From the IMG/VR virus record IMGVR_UViG_3300011226_000007: a stretch of DNA of 7,991 nt. The stretch is one strand, 5' to 3'. Positions 1 to 7,991 of this stretch are shown here, in pieces (position 1 is the first letter of the stretch; each line of letters opens with the position of its first letter). The notes under the pieces were generated by a model that was not told the origin of the DNA, searched no databases, and saw nothing but the letters and a program-made list of their open reading frames with translations. The translations under genes and the position numbers were made by a program. Source of the DNA: a virus (lineage: Duplodnaviria > Heunggongvirae > Uroviricota > Caudoviricetes).

Positions 1-127
1 CATATTCACGACGAGCAATGCGGCTACCCTGCGGCGTCAGCAGAATGTCCCGCACCGACTGGCGCAGATGGTCAATATCAGTAATAACTTTGCCGTTGGT
101 ATTGTTCATCCCGCTATAAAGCGTCAT
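1..127 (-). CDS. W: Baseplate assembly protein W (gp25/GPW-like), 5' part only; 3' end lies beyond the window start
   Basis: Not in the ORF track because it runs off the edge. Reverse-complement of 1..127 reads ATG at 127..125 then MTLYSGMNNTNGKVITDIDHLRQSVRDILLTPQGSRIARREY..., which resembles the P2 gpW N-terminus. Its ATG overlaps the V stop (ATGA). Confidence 0.75.
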   Translation of the reverse strand, partial: MTLYSGMNNTNGKVITDIDHLRQSVRDILLTPQGSRIARREY

Positions 128-702
128 ACCGGGCCTCCGGTTGTATCGCCGCCTTTCAGGACGCCAGTATGCTGATGCGCATCAACCACGATCCCGTTAG
201 AACTCATCGCTCCGCCGCCCTGGGTAACGCCACCATTGATCACCACTTCGCTGTCAATGCGCGTGCGGTCAGCCTCCAGTACAAACTCACTGGTTTTCAT
301 GGTGATGTTGTCAGCGGCCTCAATGACCATTGATTTGATGCCCCTGACATACCAGCGCCCGGTGGCGGGTTCGTATTCAAACCAGCCACCGTCAGGATGT
401 TCTGTCACGCAGGCGTCCGCCGACGTCGACGGTGGTGCGAACTGATTCGAATAGATGGCGGGTAACGCAAAGGCGGTTTCCAGATTGCCGCCCAGACTCA
501 GCAGCACCACCTGCTCACCTTCCGATGGTCGCCACCATGTCCGGGCATTCCCGGCACGCAGGGTCAGCCAGCTGATCCAGTTGGTTTCTAAGTCGCCTGT
601 TTTCACCCGGCAAAGCCAGTTCTCTCGGTCCACTTCGGTCACGATGCCGGTGCGGATCAGGTTGGTGATAAGGCGCATGATTTCGGTTAATTGTACGTTC
701 AC
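124..702 (-). CDS. V: Baseplate assembly / tail spike protein V
   Basis: 192 aa ORF; sequence MNVQLTEIMRLITNLIRTGIVTEVD...HQHTGVLKGGDTTGGPV resembles P2 gpV over its whole length (recall, not a search). Start is GTG at 702 preceded by purine-rich RBS AAGGGGGGAAGG (reverse-complement of about 705..716). Stop TGA overlaps the W start. Confidence 0.9.
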   Translation of the reverse strand: MNVQLTEIMRLITNLIRTGIVTEVDRENWLCRVKTGDLETNWISWLTLRAGNARTWWRPSEGEQVVLLSLGGNLETAFALPAIYSNQFAPPSTSADACVTEHPDGGWFEYEPATGRWYVRGIKSMVIEAADNITMKTSEFVLEADRTRIDSEVVINGGVTQGGGAMSSNGIVVDAHQHTGVLKGGDTTGGPV

Positions 703-739
703 CCTTCCCCCCTTAAAGATGAACTGTATCTCAATAAGT

Positions 740-748
740 TGTATTATT
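740..748 (+). promoter_or_regulatory. Possible sigma70-type -10 element (TG-TATTAT) for the cargo operon
   Basis: AT-rich 87 bp divergent intergenic region 703..789; TATTAT at 742..747 preceded by TG at 740..741; no convincing -35. About 40 nt upstream of the ATPase ATG at 790. Weak, sequence-only guess. Confidence 0.2.
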
Positions 749-762
749 ATCAGTGTTGTAGT

Positions 763-780
763 TGTACTGTTAACGACACA
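763..780. promoter_or_regulatory. TGT-N12-ACA dyad, candidate Ogr/Delta-type late activator site (putative P_V late promoter element)
   Basis: TGTactgttaacgacACA at 763..780 is the only exact TGT-N12-ACA in the V upstream region. P2 late promoters (P_P, P_O, P_V, P_F) carry this dyad centred near -55. Centred here at about 771.5, which would put the TSS near 717, very close to the V RBS, so spacing is tight. Confidence 0.3.
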
Positions 781-789
781 AGGGAATAT

Positions 790-2019
790 ATGCTTACATC
801 AATAAATGAAATTCATGCTCCAATTCCATACACTAATAAGACAGCAAACTTATTTCTTGAGGGTAAAAATCTCATAATAACTGGTGGTAACGGGTGTGGA
901 AAAACTAGTTTCATTAGATCTATTTATGATTTCCTTAAAAGTAAGATAGATACACCTAATGATCATAATATTAATAATTTATACAGTACGTTAGAGTCCT
1001 ACAAATATCAATTGAATAGCGACGGGCGTGACGGCTTTAATTACGACTTTTATTCTGAAGAAATAAAAAAGATTGAATTAAAAATTGAACAATTAAAAGC
1101 CATTAGAATAGAAACAAAAGAAAAAGAAGGTGAAATTCGTTCACTATTGAGATTTCACAAAGCTCTACGTGAAGCATCAATTACCTCGCCAGTCGCCGTT
1201 CCTAGGCTATCAGCTTTAATTAAAGAAAAGTCACATTTTTCTAATGAAGTAGATGGTGATGATTTCTTTGAGAATTATTTGGTTAGCTTAAAAACCGCTC
1301 AGAGCTATGCAATTTCTTTTGATAATGACCATAATAAAGCTCAGCGGATACAGGAATGGTTTGATAAAATTGAAACTGATATGCAGGAACTTTTTGAAGA
1401 TAAAAACCTCTTACTAACGTTTGATAGTAACGAAGGAAAATTTTATCTCAATCAAGATGGTAAAGATAAGTTTACTTTTCAAACATTATCTTCTGGCTAC
1501 TCATCAATATTGAGAATTTATGCTGACTTAATAATGAGAGTAGAGATGTGGGAGTTAACACCTGACAGTATCGAAGGTATTGTTTTTATTGATGAAATAG
1601 ATGCGCATTTACATGTTTCTTTGCAAAAGCAAATATTAAGATTTTTTAGTCACGCCTTTCCTAAAGTACAATTCATTGTGACTACACATTCTCCGTTTGT
1701 TGTTACATCCGTCACAAATGCCATCATTTATGATCTGTCGACCAACACGCAAATTAGTGATGTATCTTCATATTCTTACGGTATCATCCTTCAAGAGTTA
1801 TTTGGAGTAAGTCCAATATCTAAAGTTCTTTCAGATAAGTTAGAACAACTTCAAGATATTATTGATAATATTAACAACAACAATATTGAAACTGCCAATA
1901 ACATAATACAATCCTTAGCACCTTTAGATGAATCCATGGACATAAATGCAAGTGCATTTATTGACTATGCAAAAATGCAGGTTTTAAAATATAAAAAAGC
2001 AAATTCTCAGGAGAAATAA
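790..2019 (+). CDS. ABC-type ATPase (AAA_15/AAA_21-like) with coiled-coil insertion; Septu PtuA-like defence ATPase candidate
   Basis: Track ORF 691..2019; preferred start ATG 790 (RBS AAGGGA at 780..785), because the 691..789 extension overlaps the V start and its upstream region. Walker A TGGNGCGKTS at 883..909; K/E-rich coiled-coil segment (EEIKKIELKIEQLKAIRIETKEKEGEIRSLL); signature-like TLSSGYSS; Walker B plus D-loop IVFIDEIDAHLH at 1579..1614; H-loop FIVTTHSPF. About 30% GC. Stop TAA 2017..2019 overlaps the next ATG. Confidence 0.8.
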   Translation: MLTSINEIHAPIPYTNKTANLFLEGKNLIITGGNGCGKTSFIRSIYDFLKSKIDTPNDHNINNLYSTLESYKYQLNSDGRDGFNYDFYSEEIKKIELKIEQLKAIRIETKEKEGEIRSLLRFHKALREASITSPVAVPRLSALIKEKSHFSNEVDGDDFFENYLVSLKTAQSYAISFDNDHNKAQRIQEWFDKIETDMQELFEDKNLLLTFDSNEGKFYLNQDGKDKFTFQTLSSGYSSILRIYADLIMRVEMWELTPDSIEGIVFIDEIDAHLHVSLQKQILRFFSHAFPKVQFIVTTHSPFVVTSVTNAIIYDLSTNTQISDVSSYSYGIILQELFGVSPISKVLSDKLEQLQDIIDNINNNNIETANNIIQSLAPLDESMDINASAFIDYAKMQVLKYKKANSQEK

Positions 2020-2680
2020 TGTTCAAGGTTAATAGAACATATCCTGCACCAAAGTCGCTTTCCAAGAAAGTACGTTATGACGGTGCTGATGTACATGAAG
2101 CACTACAGGAATGCTTTTATGGAAAATGTTACATTTGCGAAACAAAGAACCCTTTGGATATAAACATTGAACATTTTAAACCCAAGGGTGATGATGTGGA
2201 AAGAGCTTTTGATTGGGATAATTTATATCTATCATGTTCCAGATGTAACAATATAAAACTATCAAAATATGACAACATTCTTGANNNNNNNNNNGCTGTA
2301 AAGAAAAGGTATGGGATCGAGTAAAATTACTCCCAGGATATTCTTATAAAGCAAAAAAAATAACAGTAACAGCACTATTTAATGATATTGAAACGCAGAC
2401 GACCGCAGAGTTACTTGAGAAAGTATATAATAGCGATCATACCATGAGTAAAAAATTAACTTCTGCGGCACTTCGTACTCAAGTAGTGAAAACAACCCAA
2501 AAACTAATAAAAAATATTAATGAATATTATGAAGAAGATACTCCAACAGAACAAAAAAAATACTTAATTGAAAAAATGAAGATGATGATAAAAAGAGACG
2601 CAGCTTTTTCATCATTTTGCAGATGGATCATTATGGAAGATGCTGAATTAGGTCCAATTCTTGAACCATTTATGGATTAG
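2019..2680 (+). CDS. HNH-family nuclease (Septu PtuB-like candidate); single gene split in the track by a frame-breaking 10-N run
   Basis: ATG 2019 with RBS AGGAG at 2009..2013. HNH motifs: CYIC at 2127..2138, EHFKPK (His at 2172..2174), CSRCNN at 2235..2252. The track frame stops 9 codons after the N run (2285..2294), but the +2 frame is stop-free from 2297 through the track ORF 2444..2680 (49 codons without a stop in 30%-GC DNA). So 2019..2324 and 2444..2680 are most likely one gene of about 220 aa. Stop TAG 2678..2680. Confidence 0.7.
2285..2294. other. N run (10 nt), unknown sequence inside the HNH gene
   Basis: Directly visible; flanking coding frames differ, so the true length is not 10. 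Confidence 1.
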
Positions 2681-2683
2681 TAG

Positions 2684-2718
2684 TAAAAAGCCGCCTTCTA
2701 AGAAGGCGGTATTGATTA
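2684..2718. terminator. Rho-independent terminator, likely bidirectional (stronger for minus-strand transcripts)
   Basis: Stem CCGCCTT (2691..2697) / AAGGCGG (2703..2709), extendable to 9 bp, with loop CTAAG. Minus-strand reading gives the hairpin followed by TTTTTACTA; plus-strand reading gives TATTGATTA. Sits immediately after the HNH stop and downstream of S. Confidence 0.5.
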
Positions 2719-2874
2719 CATCCTAAAAGGGCGCACCAAAACCTTTAAAAAGAATCCACTGCCAGTTTTGTAACATTTAAATTCAAAGGCAATAAGGTAG
2801 AGCCAAAACCAGTTGATGATCACGCCCAAAGGACGTGGTTTTCAGTCAGCAATAAATGAAGTAGTCTAGTCACA

Positions 2875-3324
2875 TTATTTTATTAACAACTGAAACAATA
2901 TATCTTTTACTATATTTTCTGCATATTCATTCATTCCAAGTAAACGACGCTCTGCGTATCGTACTTCCGGTCCTTTGCGACTAACACGATCACGCAGGCC
3001 GTAATGGTGAACACGGGCAATACGCTGTACCTTACCTTCAAACTGCACGCTGGCAGAATCGGCGCTGGCGGCAGTTTTCAGGTATTTTGTGGTGCGAAGC
3101 TTTGTAAACATCTGACGTTTGATGCGCCCCTTTTTACTACGTGCTGTTACCCTTCGCGGTTCATAGCTGCTGNNNNNNNNNNNNNNNNNNNNNNNNNNNN
3201 NNNNNNNNNNNNNNNNNNNNNNNNNNNNNNNNNNNNNNNNNNNCATCATGCGACTTCTCGTGGCTGGTTCCAGATTCGCCAGCAAGGCACTCAACCAGTC
3301 GTCCACCTTCTGCAGTTCAGCCAC
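2875..3324 (-). CDS. S: Tail completion / virion morphogenesis protein S
   Basis: 149 aa ORF in the P2 gpS position (downstream of R) and of the expected size (P2 gpS about 150 aa); GTG start at 3324 overlaps the R stop (GTGGCTGA). Contains a 71-nt N run (3173..3243), so the internal sequence is unknown. Identification is by position, size and general family resemblance. Confidence 0.65.
   Translation of the reverse strand: MAELQKVDDWLSALLANLEPATRSRMMXXXXXXXXXXXXXXXXXXXXXXXXSSYEPRRVTARSKKGRIKRQMFTKLRTTKYLKTAASADSASVQFEGKVQRIARVHHYGLRDRVSRKGPEVRYAERRLLGMNEYAENIVKDILFQLLIK
3173..3243. other. N run (71 nt) inside gene S
   Basis: Directly visible. Confidence 1.
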
Positions 3325-4001: not shown

Positions 4002-4272
4002 GTTTCAGTTCCTCGATCCGGTGTTGTCGTTGTCTCAGCAGTGCGCTGGTCTGTTCTGCTTCGGCATAGAGCCGCGCCTGCTCCCGGTTATTGGTTTCAG
4101 TCAGAATGGACAGACCGATCAGCTGGCTGTTTTTCTTCGTCAGTTCCTGCGCTTTACTTTTCAGCGCCGCGCGCTGCGTTTCGATGGTGTGGCTGGCGCT
4201 GTTAAGCCGCCACGACTGCCAGCCCAGCGCAACGAGTGCCAGCGCCACCACTACTGCCAGCGCACGCGTCAT
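3844..4272 (-). CDS. lysB: i-spanin (Rz/LysB-like)
   Basis: 142 aa; N-terminal transmembrane segment ALAVVVALALVALGW followed by a charged coiled-coil periplasmic domain; ATG at 4272 overlaps the K stop (ATGA). Confidence 0.75.
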   Translation of the reverse strand: MTRALAVVVALALVALGWQSWRLNSASHTIETQRAALKSKAQELTKKNSQLIGLSILTETNNREQARLYAEAEQTSALLRQRQHRIEELKRENEDLRRWADTPLPADITRLRERPALTGGTAYRQWLSASDAVSAGSGNAAH

Positions 4273-4715
4273 AGTCCAGCTCCTTTAAGGCACCAGGCCA
4301 TCTCCCGCGCACGGCGGTTATCCAGCCCCTGATTAAAAACACCTTTCACATAAACCCAGCGCGGCAACTGTCGGCACGCATCCGCCCAGCGCCGCTGATT
4401 GAGCAATTTCACCAGCGTGGAGCTGNNNNNNNNNNACCTTTCCAGCGCCCTCTCCACACGCAGCACGTTGGAGATCATCCCTTCCGCTGCCTGTCGTTCC
4501 GTAATGGTTTTGCCCGGGATGACGCCCGATGTATTACCAATGCCGTCGGTCCAGACACCCGCGCTGCACTGATACGGCTGCAGACGACAGCCTTCGTAAT
4601 CAGCAATCAGTTTCAGCCCCTCCACGGAGGTGTGAAGCTGCTGAAAACCCGGCAGCGTGGCAGTAATAGCCAGCACGGTCCCGACAAGGCAGCGTTTAAC
4701 GATTGATGGATTCAT
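4269..4715 (-). CDS. K: Endolysin, T4-lysozyme/GH24-like with N-terminal SAR (signal-anchor-release) segment
   Basis: 148 aa as read (10-N run at 4426..4435 inside); N-terminal hydrophobic stretch VKRCLVGTVLAITATLPGF; lysozyme motifs EGLKLIADYEGCRLQPYQ...GVWTDGIGNTSG resemble P22 gp19 / phage 21 R-type lysozymes. ATG 4715 with RBS GGGAGGA. Confidence 0.85.
   Translation of the reverse strand: MNPSIVKRCLVGTVLAITATLPGFQQLHTSVEGLKLIADYEGCRLQPYQCSAGVWTDGIGNTSGVIPGKTITERQAAEGMISNVLRVERALERXXXXSSTLVKLLNQRRWADACRQLPRWVYVKGVFNQGLDNRRAREMAWCLKGAGL
4426..4435. other. N run (10 nt) inside endolysin gene K
   Basis: Directly visible; lysozyme-like sequence continues in the same frame on both sides. Confidence 1.
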
Positions 4716-5675: not shown

Positions 5676-6304
5676 TTAGCGGCTGTCACTGCGCAATTTG
5701 CGCTCCAGCTGCTGCTTTTCTTTTTTCACGCCGCAGCGGGGATCGAGCTGCAGCGCANNNNNNNNNNGCTTTCACTCAGGACAGCGCCAATCGCTTTATG
5801 CAGACGCGCCCGTGACTGGTCCGGCATATCCAGACCGTCTGTCAGTTCCAGCGTCTGCAGCAACAGATCGGCATCAAAGCCGGTGGCGGCAAGCATTGCG
5901 CTCTGCGCGGCGTCTGCCATTTCCTCTGCCAGCACGGTCTGCACGTTGCGGTTACCCAGCGGCATCACCCAGCCATGACGCAGGGCATGACGCCCGATCT
6001 CCAGCGCCCCGGCATAATCTCCGGCATCAATGCGCCACAGCATCACGTACATCAGCACGTCATCCTGTTGAGCGCCTCCGGCAGCCAGGACACCCTCCGC
6101 CCAGGCGGCGTACTTCGGCAGCAACTCCACTTTGATTTCCGCTTTTTTGACCGTGGACTGAACGCCCTTGAGACGGCGTCGGTCTTCCGCTAGTTGCAGC
6201 AGCATCAGGTCATAGCCCGACGCGTGGCGAACGCTGCCGCCCTCGCGGGCGGCCTGTTCAGCCTGAACGCTCAGGCGATGCTGCCGTGCGGGACTCAGGC
6301 TCAT
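5676..6304 (-). CDS. M: Terminase small (endonuclease) subunit M, interrupted by a frame-breaking N run
   Basis: N-terminal 176 aa (MSLSPARQHRL...LHKAIGAVLSES) resembles P2 gpM. After the 10-N run (5758..5767) the track frame stops at 5726, but a different frame reads LDPRCGVKKEKQQLERKLRSDSR then TAA at 5678..5676, resembling the gpM C-terminal region. So the true end is 5676 and the N run is not a 1:1 mask. ATG 6304 with RBS GGAGCG inside the end of N. Confidence 0.85.
5758..5767. other. N run (10 nt) inside terminase gene M
   Basis: Directly visible; frame-breaking (see M). Confidence 1.
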
Positions 6305-6307
6305 GGA

Positions 6308-7366
6308 TTACGCTCCGGTTTCTGCTGCGGCGGCGCTGAAGTCGCCAATCTGGATGTTTTCCACCAGTGCGGCGCAGCGGTAGTCCTCAACCACATAGGC
6401 TTCGTTAACGGATTCAAAGTTTTCAATCCGGTCACGTTTCGGGTTGTCGATAACTGAACGGCGACGGGTGTCTTCCTGCCAGTAGATGGACAGGTTATCC
6501 AGACGGGTGATCAGCAGTGCATTCGGCGGGAAGAACGGCGCACGCACGGCCTGCAGGCCCCCCATGCGCTTCTGACTGATGATCATATCGGCAGCCAGTT
6601 TTTCACTGTTTTCCTGCTCTTTGTTGACCAGCGGGAAATACTTGTCAGACAGCAGTTCACGCCCGCAAATCACCACCAGATCGTCATCGTCCTGGTAGAC
6701 CACGTCGATAAGCTCATTGACGGCATCCATCACCACTGCGTCCAGGTTGGCATATTCGCCACCTTTCCCGACTTTCACCGCACCCGGTGTGGTTTCACCG
6801 CCCGTGGTGGTGCTGCCCATGACGTGATCCGGTGCATCCTCACGGATTTTCTGCAGCCAGCCTTTATTCACATCCTGCAGCAGCGGGTTTTCGCTACGGT
6901 TGGAGGTTTTCGCACGCTTCACGCCGTTAAAGCCGATCATGATGCGGTCCAGTGCCTGACGTTTCACGATGGCGTCACGGATACGCACCTGGAAATCCTG
7001 AAACTTCGCCCACAGGTCCAGCTTCGCGTAGGTCAGCACCGTGTCAAAGTTGGTCTGCTCGCATTTATATTCCACATCGACCATCAGCGTCGGATCGACA
7101 GGCTCACGCTCTTTCGCGGTGGTGTCAGTGGTTCCGGCAATGGTGCTGCCAACACCCAGCCCCAGCAGCTGACCGGACTGCTCAGTCACTGGCGTGACGT
7201 TAATCAGCGTCAGGAAAGCGGCGGACTGCTGGATCTGGTCTTCCAGCGTCTGCTGTACAGACGGCTCCACGGTGAATTTGCTGGACAGTTCTTCAACTGC
7301 CACACCGTTCAGACGCGCCAACTGCTGCAGGTAAGCGTTAAAAGCAAAGCGGGTATTCTTCTTCAT
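6308..7366 (-). CDS. N: Major capsid protein N
   Basis: 352 aa; MKKNTRFAFNAYLQQLARLNGV...SIYWQEDTRRRSVIDNPKRDRIENFESVNEAYVVEDY resembles P2 gpN (about 357 aa). ATG 7366 with RBS GGAG upstream. Confidence 0.92.
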   Translation of the reverse strand: MKKNTRFAFNAYLQQLARLNGVAVEELSSKFTVEPSVQQTLEDQIQQSAAFLTLINVTPVTEQSGQLLGLGVGSTIAGTTDTTAKEREPVDPTLMVDVEYKCEQTNFDTVLTYAKLDLWAKFQDFQVRIRDAIVKRQALDRIMIGFNGVKRAKTSNRSENPLLQDVNKGWLQKIREDAPDHVMGSTTTGGETTPGAVKVGKGGEYANLDAVVMDAVNELIDVVYQDDDDLVVICGRELLSDKYFPLVNKEQENSEKLAADMIISQKRMGGLQAVRAPFFPPNALLITRLDNLSIYWQEDTRRRSVIDNPKRDRIENFESVNEAYVVEDYRCAALVENIQIGDFSAAAAETGA

Positions 7367-7413: not shown

Positions 7414-7991
7414 TTACCGCCTGNNNNNNNNNNNNNNNNNNNNNNNNNNNNNNNNNNNNNNNNNNNNNNNNNNNNNNNNNNNNNNNNNNNNNNNNNNNNN
7501 NNNNNNNNNNNNNNNNNNNNNNNNNNNNNNNNNNNNNNNNNNNNNNNNNNNNNNNNNNNNNNNNNNNNNNNNNNCACGCTGGCGGTAGTCCTGGCGGCTG
7601 TCTTCATGACTCAGCTTATTCACCAGTTCGTTAAAGGCGGTCTGCTGTGCCTGCAGGGCAGTCTCCAGCTCAGACAGACGTTCTTCCTGCTCAGACAGGG
7701 ATTTTTCGGTGCGTCCGCTCAGGTTCTGCTGCTCAGTGGCGACCAGCTCCACGGCCTTATGCACATCAGAGAACCGGGCATCGTCTGACTGCTCTTTTTT
7801 GGTGAACAGCGCCGTGACGCGGGCAAACAGGGACGGTTTGTCGTCCTGGACTTCTTCCAGTTCGATCACCGTTTCCTCTGCGGCGGTAAAGAGATTGGCG
7901 GGATTCTGCTTGCGGTTTGCCAGCGGGTTATGGGCTGCACTGGCGCTGAATGTCAGCATTTCCGTACCCAGACTGGCGGGGTCATCAATGG
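7414..7991 (-). CDS. O: Capsid scaffolding protein O, partial: N-terminus beyond window end, C-terminus obscured by a 151-N run
   Basis: Track ORF 7414..7959 begins at an internal Met; the frame stays open upstream to the window edge (...IDDPASLGTEMLTFSASAAHNPLANRKQNPANLF...), resembling the middle of P2 gpO. N run at 7424..7574 covers the 3' part, so the stop at 7414 is provisional. Confidence 0.8.
   Translation of the reverse strand, partial: IDDPASLGTEMLTFSASAAHNPLANRKQNPANLFTAAEETVIELEEVQDDKPSLFARVTALFTKKEQSDDARFSDVHKAVELVATEQQNLSGRTEKSLSEQEERLSELETALQAQQTAFNELVNKLSHEDSRQDYRQRXXXXXXXXXXXXXXXXXXXXXXXXXXXXXXXXXXXXXXXXXXXXXXXXXXXRR
7424..7574. other. N run (151 nt) covering the 3' part of gene O
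   Basis: Directly visible. Confidence 1.

Follow-up and report, generated by a model that had tools for sequence, protein, structure and literature searches.

The window, that is, the whole stretch of 7,991 nucleotides of viral DNA analyzed here, carries two genes between V and S, two late genes of a P2-like phage. The following features were assigned at this locus:

124 to 702, minus strand: V, a baseplate assembly gene of 192 aa with a GTG start, the conserved gene that borders the variable locus on the left (open reading frame list)
762 to 781, no strand assigned: a TTGT-N12-ACAA dyad, candidate late-activator binding site of the pV promoter (alignment and P2 record)
790 to 2019, plus strand: ptuA, an ABC/SMC-type ATPase gene of 409 aa (open reading frame list, Pfam, PADLOC, motifs, and fold)
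2019 to 2680, plus strand: ptuB, an HNH nuclease gene, 217 aa with the masked bases restored (open reading frames, Pfam HNH, PADLOC, and homologues)
2285 to 2294, no strand assigned: a run of 10 N within ptuB that stands for 2 nt (TT) and produces an apparent frameshift
2681 to 2856, minus strand: a conserved noncoding element of approximately 175 nt with copies elsewhere and a hairpin at its 3' end
2875 to 3324, minus strand: S, the tail-completion gene and right flank (Pfam Phage_tail_S), 148 aa in unmasked copies

Both ptuA and ptuB lie on the plus strand, opposite to V, S, and the remaining late genes on the minus strand. The ATG of ptuA is at 790, with a ribosome-binding site (AAGGGA) at 780–785, and its stop codon at 2017–2019 overlaps the ptuB start at 2019 by 1 nt (TAATG). 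The two overlapping genes between S and V, and the 409-aa ABC-type ATPase, that a previous sequence-only reading had described are thus present. A longer, 442-aa form of ptuA with a TTG start (691–2019) was dropped in favor of the ATG at 790 on the basis of the ribosome-binding site, the RefSeq annotation, and homologue lengths of 408–410 aa. As given, the second open reading frame, which ends with a stop codon at 2678–2680, is broken, as the 10-N run sets its halves in different frames. These 10 N correspond to TT both on another contig, whose cassette is otherwise 100% identical, and on an E. coli chromosome of 99.4% identity. The flanks of the run are 100% identical to the copies L010 and L001, in which TT completes the codons D89–C90 and ptuB is intact at 217 aa. 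The apparent frameshift therefore arises because 10 N replace two bases. Similarly, the N runs of the window as a whole are not length-true, with 71 N representing 68 nt. The sequence-only reading was correct in proposing an HNH nuclease, and its size of about 220 aa is to be revised to 217 aa, encoded by a frame that the N run interrupts.

The flanking genes place the cassette in a well-defined context. At 99%-identical loci, the RefSeq name of V is "phage baseplate assembly protein V", and Pfam Phage_base_V matched V of the identical contig. The 99.4%-identical cassette lies in a complete P2-like prophage with the gene order ogr, D, other tail genes, V, cassette, S, R, capsid genes, Q, A, and int. 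In the GenBank record of P2, orf30 is located between S and V on the opposite strand, and the order S, O-operon terminator, opposite-strand cargo, pV activator site, and V is the same as here. The cassette thus occupies the position of P2 orf30, as had been proposed, between S and V with the O-operon terminator and the pV activator site as its flanks; position and layout are shared with P2, while the slot is filled here by a recognized two-gene defense system. The dyad at 762–781 ends 9 nt ahead of the ptuA ATG. Its TTGT and ACAA halves are unchanged in all seven aligned S–V alleles, including an empty site, within otherwise unrelated surroundings, and the equivalent place in the P2 record is annotated "activator binding site; activation of pV promoter". 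Based on this correspondence, the dyad is predicted to function as the activator site for pV. Moreover, the GC content of the insert is 33%, compared with 58% for the phage backbone, which is consistent with horizontal acquisition of the AT-rich insert.

PtuA contains the complete motif set of an ABC/SMC-type ATPase: Walker A at G32–T39 (with K38), an LSSG signature at 233–236, Walker B at D268/E269, a D-loop at H273, and an H-loop at H300. These motif residues are invariant among 35 homologues of 39–69% identity. The profile searches that the sequence-only reading had called for gave matches for both proteins. Pfam AAA_21 (5.5e-19) and AAA_15 (7.9e-13) both exceeded their gathering scores in PtuA, and the PADLOC model PDLC00268 (PtuA1|PtuA) matched residues 2–404 of the 409 aa to model positions 2–409 of 411 (E = 1.3e-139, 464 bits). 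The next-best non-Septu ATPase model in PADLOC was more than 100 orders of magnitude weaker. For PtuB, CxxC motifs at 37–40 and 73–76 surround H52 and N68, followed by N77, and C37, C40, E41, H52, N68, C73, C76, and N77 are invariant among 58 homologues. Pfam HNH matched PtuB at 2.5e-6 (28 bits, cut-off 21.4), and PADLOC PDLC00321 (PtuB1|PtuB) matched its N-terminal half at 2.1e-46 (model 1–94) and its C-terminal half at 9.6e-46 (model 97–223). In RefSeq, the two proteins are named only "AAA family ATPase" and "HNH endonuclease". The prophage also exists in unmasked form at NZ_CP116100.1 1264700–1298800, with WP_048980405/WP_048980403 as the protein pair.

The structural model is in line with these assignments. 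The AlphaFold model of PtuA has a pLDDT of 81.3 and a pTM of 0.69, and the best 50 Foldseek matches in the PDB are all PtuA chains (E 3e-12 to 5e-9, probability 1.0), including those of E. coli Septu (8EEA/8EE4/8SUX) and of the retrons Ec83, Ec78, and Eco7. The TM scores against solved PtuA chains are only 0.36–0.49, probably due to a differing domain orientation and a shorter helical insertion. Sequence identity to these chains is 14–17%, and in phmmer searches only the C-terminal ATPase lobe aligns, with residues 225–316 matching 8EE4. By this measure, the clade represented here is very distant from every solved or biochemically studied PtuA.

Septu is a well-studied system, and its type I form (PtuA/PtuB) was reportedly introduced by Doron et al. 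in 2018. The E. coli Septu systems of 8EE4/8EEA/8SUX and EcB88 share with the present locus the same two-gene operon, in which the gene of an ABC/SMC-type ATPase precedes that of a distinct HNH nuclease, and the ATPase motifs and the Cys4/H/N core of the HNH domain match those of Septu type I. The differences concern length. PtuA has 409 aa here and 465 aa in 8EE4, and K38 of Walker A is 230 residues away from D268 of Walker B, compared with 273 residues between K43 and D316, so the helical insertion is approximately 40 residues shorter. Similarly, the catalytic His of PtuB is H52 instead of H75, and the N-terminus is therefore shorter by approximately 20 residues. Gabija (GajA), PARIS (AriA), and OLD-family systems, which are carried by P2/P4 hotspots, couple the same type of AAA_15/AAA_21 ABC-type "sensor" ATPase to a nuclease. 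However, the nuclease in those systems is provided by a Toprim domain or by AriB/GajB as a protein of its own, in contrast to the HNH partner found here. Neither Pfam nor PADLOC detected a Toprim match in the two proteins, and the AriA and NsnB models of PADLOC gave PtuA approximately 78 bits against 464 for the PtuA model.

Collectively, the adjacent and co-oriented ATPase and nuclease genes (a layout retained in RefSeq copies), the intact Walker A/B, signature, and H-loop of an ABC/SMC-type ATPase, the full-length matches to curated PtuA and PtuB profiles in PADLOC, the HNH domain with catalytic His/Asn and zinc-binding cysteines, and the predicted fold of solved PtuA indicate that ptuA followed by ptuB very likely constitutes an anti-phage system of Septu type I, which an E. 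coli P2-like prophage carries as accessory cargo in its variable orf30 (S–V) locus. This agrees with the earlier suggestion that an ATPase with a separate HNH nuclease is Septu-like. The choice between a characterized subtype and a divergent, undescribed pair, which had been considered undecidable, is settled by the profiles: as judged by its matches, the clade is already covered by the Septu type I models. The cassette belongs, as a short-form member, to a known system that automated tools can detect, and its defense function is predicted by likeness to Septu systems; our literature search found no experimental data for any member of the short-form clade. The main value for annotation is that "AAA family ATPase" and "HNH endonuclease" can be relabeled PtuA and PtuB.

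To define the site itself, we compared the window with other alleles of the locus. Homology to a prophage with an empty site, in which 68 bp separate V and S, ends at the V start codon (702/703) and returns near 2940 inside S. The swapped segment is thus larger than the 781–2720 given for the cassette in the sequence-only reading. The last approximately 20 codons of S (2875 to about 2940) are AT-rich and specific to this cargo allele, and the gpS C-terminus after the conserved ...LLG differs in every cargo allele. In other E. coli prophages, the orf30 locus is either empty or holds a TIR protein, a DUF262 protein, PDC-S49, or OLD-like ATPases, and this same-site cargo matches defense or candidate-defense models (PDC-S49, NsnA-like DUF262, AriA/GajA-like ATPases, and the TIR protein). 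To our knowledge, P2 Orf30 itself has no known function, and the 261-aa protein gave no match in PADLOC. These comparisons characterize the S–V slot of E. coli P2-like prophages as a true defense swap site with sharp module boundaries that include the last approximately 20 codons of gpS.

P2-like phages have three classic variable regions: orf30, TO/old-tin, and Z/fun. The orf30 locus is documented as a variable locus with horizontally acquired genes (PMC3091744, PMC6823313), and Septu is already recorded for P2-like phages in the supplementary tables of one study (PMC9122126); the statement that P2-like prophages carry defense systems at variable loci is thus borne out. S–V falls inside a defense hotspot described as "within the tail genes / downstream of GpL" (PMC13586616). 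The main publications on P2 defense hotspots focus elsewhere; those consulted name A–Q, Z/fun, and tail/cI explicitly and do not name S–V. The cassette is therefore a standard Septu in a known variable slot, a finding that is real but ordinary and that leaves the current understanding of Septu or P2 unchanged.

Of 5426 complete E. coli genomes, 13 carry the same cassette at this site, and all 24 neighborhoods of contigs encoding the exact PtuA were grouped as similar to one that was displayed, in which the cassette lies between V and S. This recurrence at one site in 13 genomes and 24 contigs excludes a chance origin. Among 60 IMG/VR loci encoding a near-full-length PtuA of the short-form clade, a PtuB homologue lies directly downstream at 59, and 16 loci lie between gpV and gpS, including alleles only 37–41% identical. 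Short-clade Septu alleles thus fill the S–V slot of P2-like phages across 37–97% identity. Furthermore, ptuAB has an integrase as its neighbor in a Klebsiella element that also carries TraD/MobA-family genes, and resolvases in Vibrio. In a collection of 50,697 phage records, megablast with the cassette gave no match and tblastn with PtuA gave only weak partial matches, none of which exceeded 45% identity or 33% query coverage; with respect to that collection, the cassette is thus one of prophages and IMG/VR contigs and is not known from isolated phages. The short-form clade is abundant in viral contigs and would offer a compact Septu for mechanistic studies.

Three other explanations of the cassette were weighed against the Septu assignment. 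Retron type I-A systems (Ec78/Eco7 and Ec83) show the same partnership of ATPase and HNH nuclease, and it is retron I-A PtuA and PtuB that provide the nearest solved structures as well as the NCBIfam names; among solved proteins, these are also the best sequence and structure matches (PtuA E about 3e-14, PtuB 5e-3). The cassette could accordingly be the effector half of an Ec78/Ec83-like retron, with the reverse transcriptase and ncRNA located elsewhere or overlooked. However, retron PtuA is larger (540–550 aa compared with 409 aa here), being extended at its N-terminus and having a longer insertion, and the retron I-A ATPase model of PADLOC scores 109 bits against 464 for the stand-alone PtuA model. 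The NCBIfam PtuA and PtuB equivalogs, which are models built for the Ec78 effectors, give 97 bits against a cut-off of 500 and 33 bits against a cut-off of 150, both far below threshold. Retrons of this type have a reverse transcriptase, msr/msd RNA, and msDNA to keep the complex inactive, which are lacking here. Only two open reading frames of at least 40 aa lie between V and S; neither encodes the adjacent reverse transcriptase that defines such a retron, and Rfam gave no match at E ≤ 1, for msr/msd or any other RNA, over positions 600–3000 of the window. As no reverse transcriptase or RNA gene is present, a retron is ruled out with next to no residual probability.

The two remaining explanations accept the gene assignments and question the role in immunity. 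The cassette might be decaying or silent cargo, an acquired remnant that hitch-hikes in the prophage and is non-functional or unexpressed, for example as silenced AT-rich DNA. Such a reading would suit the 33% GC insert within a 58% GC phage, the failure to find a consensus promoter upstream of ptuA, and the rarity of the cassette (13 of approximately 1090 genomes with this P2-like late region). It would also suit a 1-nt deletion that shortens an A8 tract to A7 and splits ptuB in 4 of the 13 complete E. coli genomes, truncating PtuB past the HNH core; the system is therefore dispensable and sometimes lost. In contrast, the window copy is intact after the mask is resolved, the catalytic residues are invariant among homologues of 28–97% identity, the ptuA–ptuB pairing is retained at 59 of 60 loci, and ptuAB is under purifying selection (dN/dS 0.26 for ptuA and 0.08 for ptuB). 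Decay or silence is thus quite improbable. HNH nucleases include homing endonucleases, and the cassette could instead be a selfish maintenance or mobility module, homing- or addiction-like, that spreads into S–V or penalizes prophage loss and does not serve immunity. The recurrence of the cassette and its distant relatives at exactly S–V in diverged P2-like phages would fit this idea, as would the sharp edges of the swapped module, one at the V start codon and the other within S. However, unrelated cargo that contains no nuclease (the TIR protein and PDC-S49) has the same boundaries, so the site, not the HNH domain, explains the location. Moreover, the same gene pair is present in non-P2 contexts, the top profile matches are to Septu and not to homing HNH families, and Septu systems have demonstrated anti-phage phenotypes (PMC13096335). 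We consider the selfish module very improbable and retain the reading of the cassette as a Septu type I system.

As such a system, the cassette may act through the steps known or proposed for studied Septu and retron–Septu systems. In the lysogen, PtuA oligomers would hold PtuB and keep the nuclease silent. Reportedly, the E. coli Septu of Li et al. 2024 has a PtuA:PtuB ratio of 6:2 and is inhibited by ATP; the ratio is 4:2 in the retron-displaced PtuAB of Ec78 (PDB entry 9nnk). Infection by another phage would release or activate the PtuAB nuclease, for which the triggers proposed in the literature include NTP depletion, and the activated nuclease would cut nucleic acid; trigger and target in this clade are matters of conjecture. 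In Septu EcB88, of another clade, the Walker A/B and HNH residues are required for protection from phage, and tRNA-Tyr is cleaved in its variable loop in vivo upon infection (PMC13096335), whereas the PtuAB subcomplex of retron Ec83 degrades ssDNA in vitro (PMC13434031). Phage replication would then halt while the infected cell pays with reduced growth, an outcome that might protect the lysogen population and the prophage. As for expression, transcription of ptuAB presumably starts at a weak promoter inside the pV control region and would end at a bidirectional hairpin common to the late O operon. A consensus scan detected no sigma-70 promoter on the plus strand upstream of ptuA and overall gave no more sites than shuffled sequence; the promoter proposal takes as its basis only the conservation between the E. 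coli and Enterobacter alleles.

The sequence-only reading had closed the cassette with a hairpin terminator. The hairpin at 2691–2709 is real (-18.3 kcal/mol, z = -4.15), but its clean T-run is on the minus strand (2683–2690), and it forms part of the approximately 175-nt element. Read in the minus-strand sense, this element closely follows S and has the hairpin (2709–2691) and the T-run at its end. Copies of 83–88% identity have unrelated neighbors: in 10 E. coli chromosomes the copy follows a MurR/RpiR regulator gene, and in Entomohabitans it follows fbaA. Both hairpin and element are absent from the 68%-identical Enterobacter Septu allele at the same site. From this distribution, the hairpin is judged to belong to a separable element and not to the Septu cassette. 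The element is a probable bidirectional terminator that serves the late O operon on one side and ptuAB on the other. Rfam, which gave no match at E ≤ 1 over 600–3000, also gave none for a chromosomal copy of the element, and RNAalifold showed no compensatory pairs among just three copies. Instead of serving as a plain terminator, the element could function as a portable module, either a small RNA or a 3'-UTR.

The cassette is thus wedged between a bidirectional O-operon terminator and an activator-dependent pV promoter, with the ribosome-binding site of ptuA at most 10 nt from the dyad. This layout could tie ptuAB expression inversely to the late transcription of the prophage, with shut-off when P2 itself is lytic. 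In addition, the short-form PtuA is without approximately 40 to 140 residues that are found in every PtuA studied so far. It is rather unlikely, in our estimation, that the short-form clade differs in Septu assembly, trigger, or target, that its expression is inverse to late transcription, and that the 175-nt element is an RNA module, all jointly.

The element also contains a hydrophobic open reading frame of 37 codons (2716–2829, minus strand), which was considered as a small toxin gene and rejected. Neither Pfam nor NCBIfam assigned it to a family, and it is frameshifted in the E. coli chromosomal copy. An alignment with the Entomohabitans copy, read by eye, shows 12 nonsynonymous differences and 1 synonymous difference.

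In the minus-strand reading of the window, the late region of a P2-like prophage, V and S are separated by an insert of 2172 bp with a GC content of 33%, against 58% in the backbone. Based on the ORF listing, the insert holds exactly two plus-strand ORFs of at least 40 aa. These are the two overlapping genes that the sequence-only reading had placed opposite to the late genes, and the features of the region are as follows.

124–702, minus strand: baseplate gene V
762–781: TTGT-N12-ACAA dyad
790–2019, plus strand: ptuA, ATG at 790, stop at 2017–2019, 409 aa, AAGGGA ribosome-binding site upstream
2019–2680, plus strand: ptuB, start overlapping the ptuA stop by one base (TAATG)
2856 to 2681, minus-strand sense: conserved noncoding element of ~175 nt
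2691–2709: hairpin with its T-run on the minus strand
2875–3324, minus strand: tail-completion gene S, followed by R, lysC/lysB, the lysozyme and holin genes, X, L, M, N (6308–7366) and O
2285–2294, 3173–3243, 4426–4435, 5758–5767 and 7424–7574: N runs, across which reading frames are unreliable

The segment 700–2900 is present as a 99.4%-identical copy in E. coli DETEC-P881 (locus L001), within a complete P2-like prophage integrated between ybjL and rcdA.

The 10-N run at 2285–2294 splits the second ORF into an N-terminal part of 88 codons and a C-terminal part of 127 codons in different frames. The exact PtuA is also encoded by contig GCA_053261715.1 (L010), whose sequence matches that of the window at 100% identity over 703–2284 and 2295–2874. 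Both L010 and L001 carry two bases (TT) in place of the 10 N, and their ptuB is intact, with 654 nt and 217 aa. Similarly, 71 N of the window correspond to 68 nt; thus, the length of an N run is not that of the sequence it masks. The ptuB frameshift is a false one, a masking artefact, and the N runs probably cause further false frameshifts in S, K, M and O. The ATPase size proposed earlier, 409 aa, is exact, while the nuclease, put at about 220 aa, has 217 aa in the intact copies.

The two genes are a member of the known Septu system, which standard tools would detect, and the earlier proposal of a Septu-like ATPase–HNH pair is borne out. PtuA matches the Pfam families AAA_21 (5.5e-19) and AAA_15 (7.9e-13), and the N-terminal part of PtuB matches HNH (2.5e-6), all exceeding the gathering scores. 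The PADLOC model of PtuA (PDLC00268) aligns end to end with E=1.3e-139, and that of PtuB (PDLC00321) matches the two halves at 2.1e-46 and 9.6e-46, jointly covering model positions 1–223. The best non-Septu ATPase models in PADLOC reach 7e-32 (retron I-A ATPase), 3e-22 (AriA) and 4e-22 (NsnB) on PtuA. The NCBIfam PtuA and PtuB equivalogs, made for retron Ec78, also match, but far under their cut-offs. Moreover, the motif residues of both proteins do not vary among their homologues: in PtuA, Walker A K38, signature LSSG 233–236, Walker B D268/E269, D-loop H273 and H-loop H300 (35 homologues at 39–69% identity), and in PtuB, CxxC 37–40, H52, N68, CxxC 73–76 and N77 (58 homologues at 28–97% identity). 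For the AlphaFold model of PtuA (pLDDT 81.3), PtuA chains fill the first 50 places among the PDB matches; they come from E. coli Septu (8EEA/8EE4/8SUX) and retrons Ec83, Ec78 and Eco7, with a probability of 1.0 and 14–17% identity. By sequence alone, PtuA aligns with the solved PtuAs only over the C-terminal ATPase lobe (E 1e-11 to 1e-14), and PtuB aligns marginally with solved proteins (5e-3). Compared with studied Septu proteins, PtuA lacks about 55 to 140 residues and PtuB about 20 at its N-terminus, and sequence identity is low.

At E<=1e-5, 1642 PtuA homologues were found; among those with a named source, the top matches come from Enterobacterales and Vibrionaceae. The Enterobacter allele (68% identical) likewise occupies the V–S site, the Klebsiella allele (57%) adjoins an integrase, its element also carrying TraD/MobA-family genes, and the Vibrio allele (43%) adjoins resolvases; each has a 217–219-aa partner directly 3'. 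Among the IMG/VR loci with a near-full-length PtuA of the same clade, a PtuB homologue lies directly downstream in 59 of 60, and gpV and gpS flank 16 of the 60, including alleles 37–41% identical to the window PtuA. Comparison with a 97%-identical E. coli allele gives dN/dS values of 0.26 (ptuA) and 0.08 (ptuB). The cassette occurs in 13 complete E. coli genomes, and in four of these (M7424, M00057, M11957 and CNREC_004-43; locus L024 1420–2072) the A8 tract of ptuB (2345–2352) is A7; this deletion truncates PtuB after residue 111 and leaves ORFs of 111 and 78 aa, so that loss does occur. The A7 variant could reflect real inactivation, homopolymer slippage or sequencing error.

In P2-like prophages of E. 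coli, the S–V (orf30) slot is a hotspot for swapping. The GenBank P2 record runs S, the O-operon rho-independent terminator, the nonessential opposite-strand orf30, the pV activator binding site and V; the window has this order reversed, in agreement with the earlier placement at dispensable orf30. Of 5426 complete E. coli genomes, about 1090 carry the late region. In an evenly spaced sample, 51 places span the full query, and 21 of them exceed both of the lengths that represent the empty site; in the empty site, V and S are 68 bp apart. We compared window 703–2940 with loci L002, L003, L006–L009, L011–L013 and L020. Each of the eight other alleles inspected carries its extra DNA between V and S, and the GC content of all cargo alleles is 31–37%.

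Cargo between V and S in the other alleles, with PADLOC assignment for L006–L009 and L011–L013
L006, L007: 598-aa ATPase; AriAB/GajA-like
L008: two ATPase genes; AriA/Old-like
L009: TIR protein; weak PDC-S66
L011: DUF262 protein; NsnA-like
L012: P-loop protein; PDC-S49, 1e-134
L013: 481-aa protein; no family
L020 (Enterobacter): Septu

On one side, the last ~20 codons of gpS, 3' of a conserved ...LLG, have their own version in each cargo allele; on the other, homology stops at the V start codon. This codon (700–702) is GTG in the window and other Septu-bearing E. coli alleles and ATG in empty-site prophages, and the V ribosome-binding region upstream is part of the swapped segment. The TTGT-N12-ACAA dyad, the counterpart of the annotated pV activator site of P2, is invariant in all S–V alleles including the empty site, with unrelated flanks. 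Its distance to the V start codon is 69.5 bp in the window versus 55.5 bp in the empty site. Since the dyad ends 9 nt 5' of the ptuA ATG, the ptuA leader overlaps the pV control region.

The hairpin proposed to terminate the cassette is strong (-18.3 kcal/mol, z = -4.15), but it is the rho-independent terminator of the minus-strand ~175-nt element. Copies of this element (window 2681–2856; L004 4975–5153; L025 7289–7465) are 83–88% identical among three unrelated contexts, each directly 3' of a co-oriented gene: gpS in the window, the gene of a MurR/RpiR regulator in 10 chromosomes of E. coli, and, in Entomohabitans teleogrylli, fbaA together with the terminator that belongs to fbaA itself. 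The element is absent from the Enterobacter Septu allele, in which 16 nt lie between the ptuB and S stops; thus, it is separable from Septu. An Rfam scan gave no family, and no coding constraint was found in its 37-codon ORF. The element is probably the O-operon terminator and, in the opposite direction, closes ptuAB; it may be a portable terminator, a 3'-UTR RNA or a small mobile element.

Anatomy, conservation and family membership were established on the pair itself, while its mechanism may be drawn from studied relatives, whose logic the pair would share: an HNH nuclease held by the ATPase and freed on infection. For retron Ec83, PtuAB as a subcomplex degrades ssDNA, but the complete retron complex shows no activity (PMC13434031), and a preprint reports the proposal of PtuA activation by NTP depletion (10.1101/2022.08.21.504612).

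Septu is a well-known system, earlier recorded in the P4 hotspot and the P2 A–Q hotspot (PMC9122126). P2-like phages have three classic variable loci, of which orf30 is one (PMC3091744, PMC6823313), and in a recent survey 16% of P2 defence systems lie "downstream of GpL / within the tail genes" (PMC13586616). The other P2-hotspot literature examined names the A–Q, Z/fun and tail/cI loci and not S–V; therefore, naming S–V explicitly as a defence swap site is a small addition.

The lysB/lysozyme-gene junction (about 4269–4272) is a second presence/absence polymorphism: the window and L001 lack a 125-aa "DNZ54_00345 family" gene that many related prophages carry there (L002 2162–2539), at the P2 lysA position. 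Finally, the DETEC-P881 prophage has more accessory genes at the remaining classic variable loci (L001 14330–15491 and 30587–32415), namely a recombinase-family gene and two hypothetical genes at the Z/fun position, between the tail sheath and tail-fibre assembly genes, and a SieB-family protein and two hypothetical proteins between portal gene Q and the replication gene.
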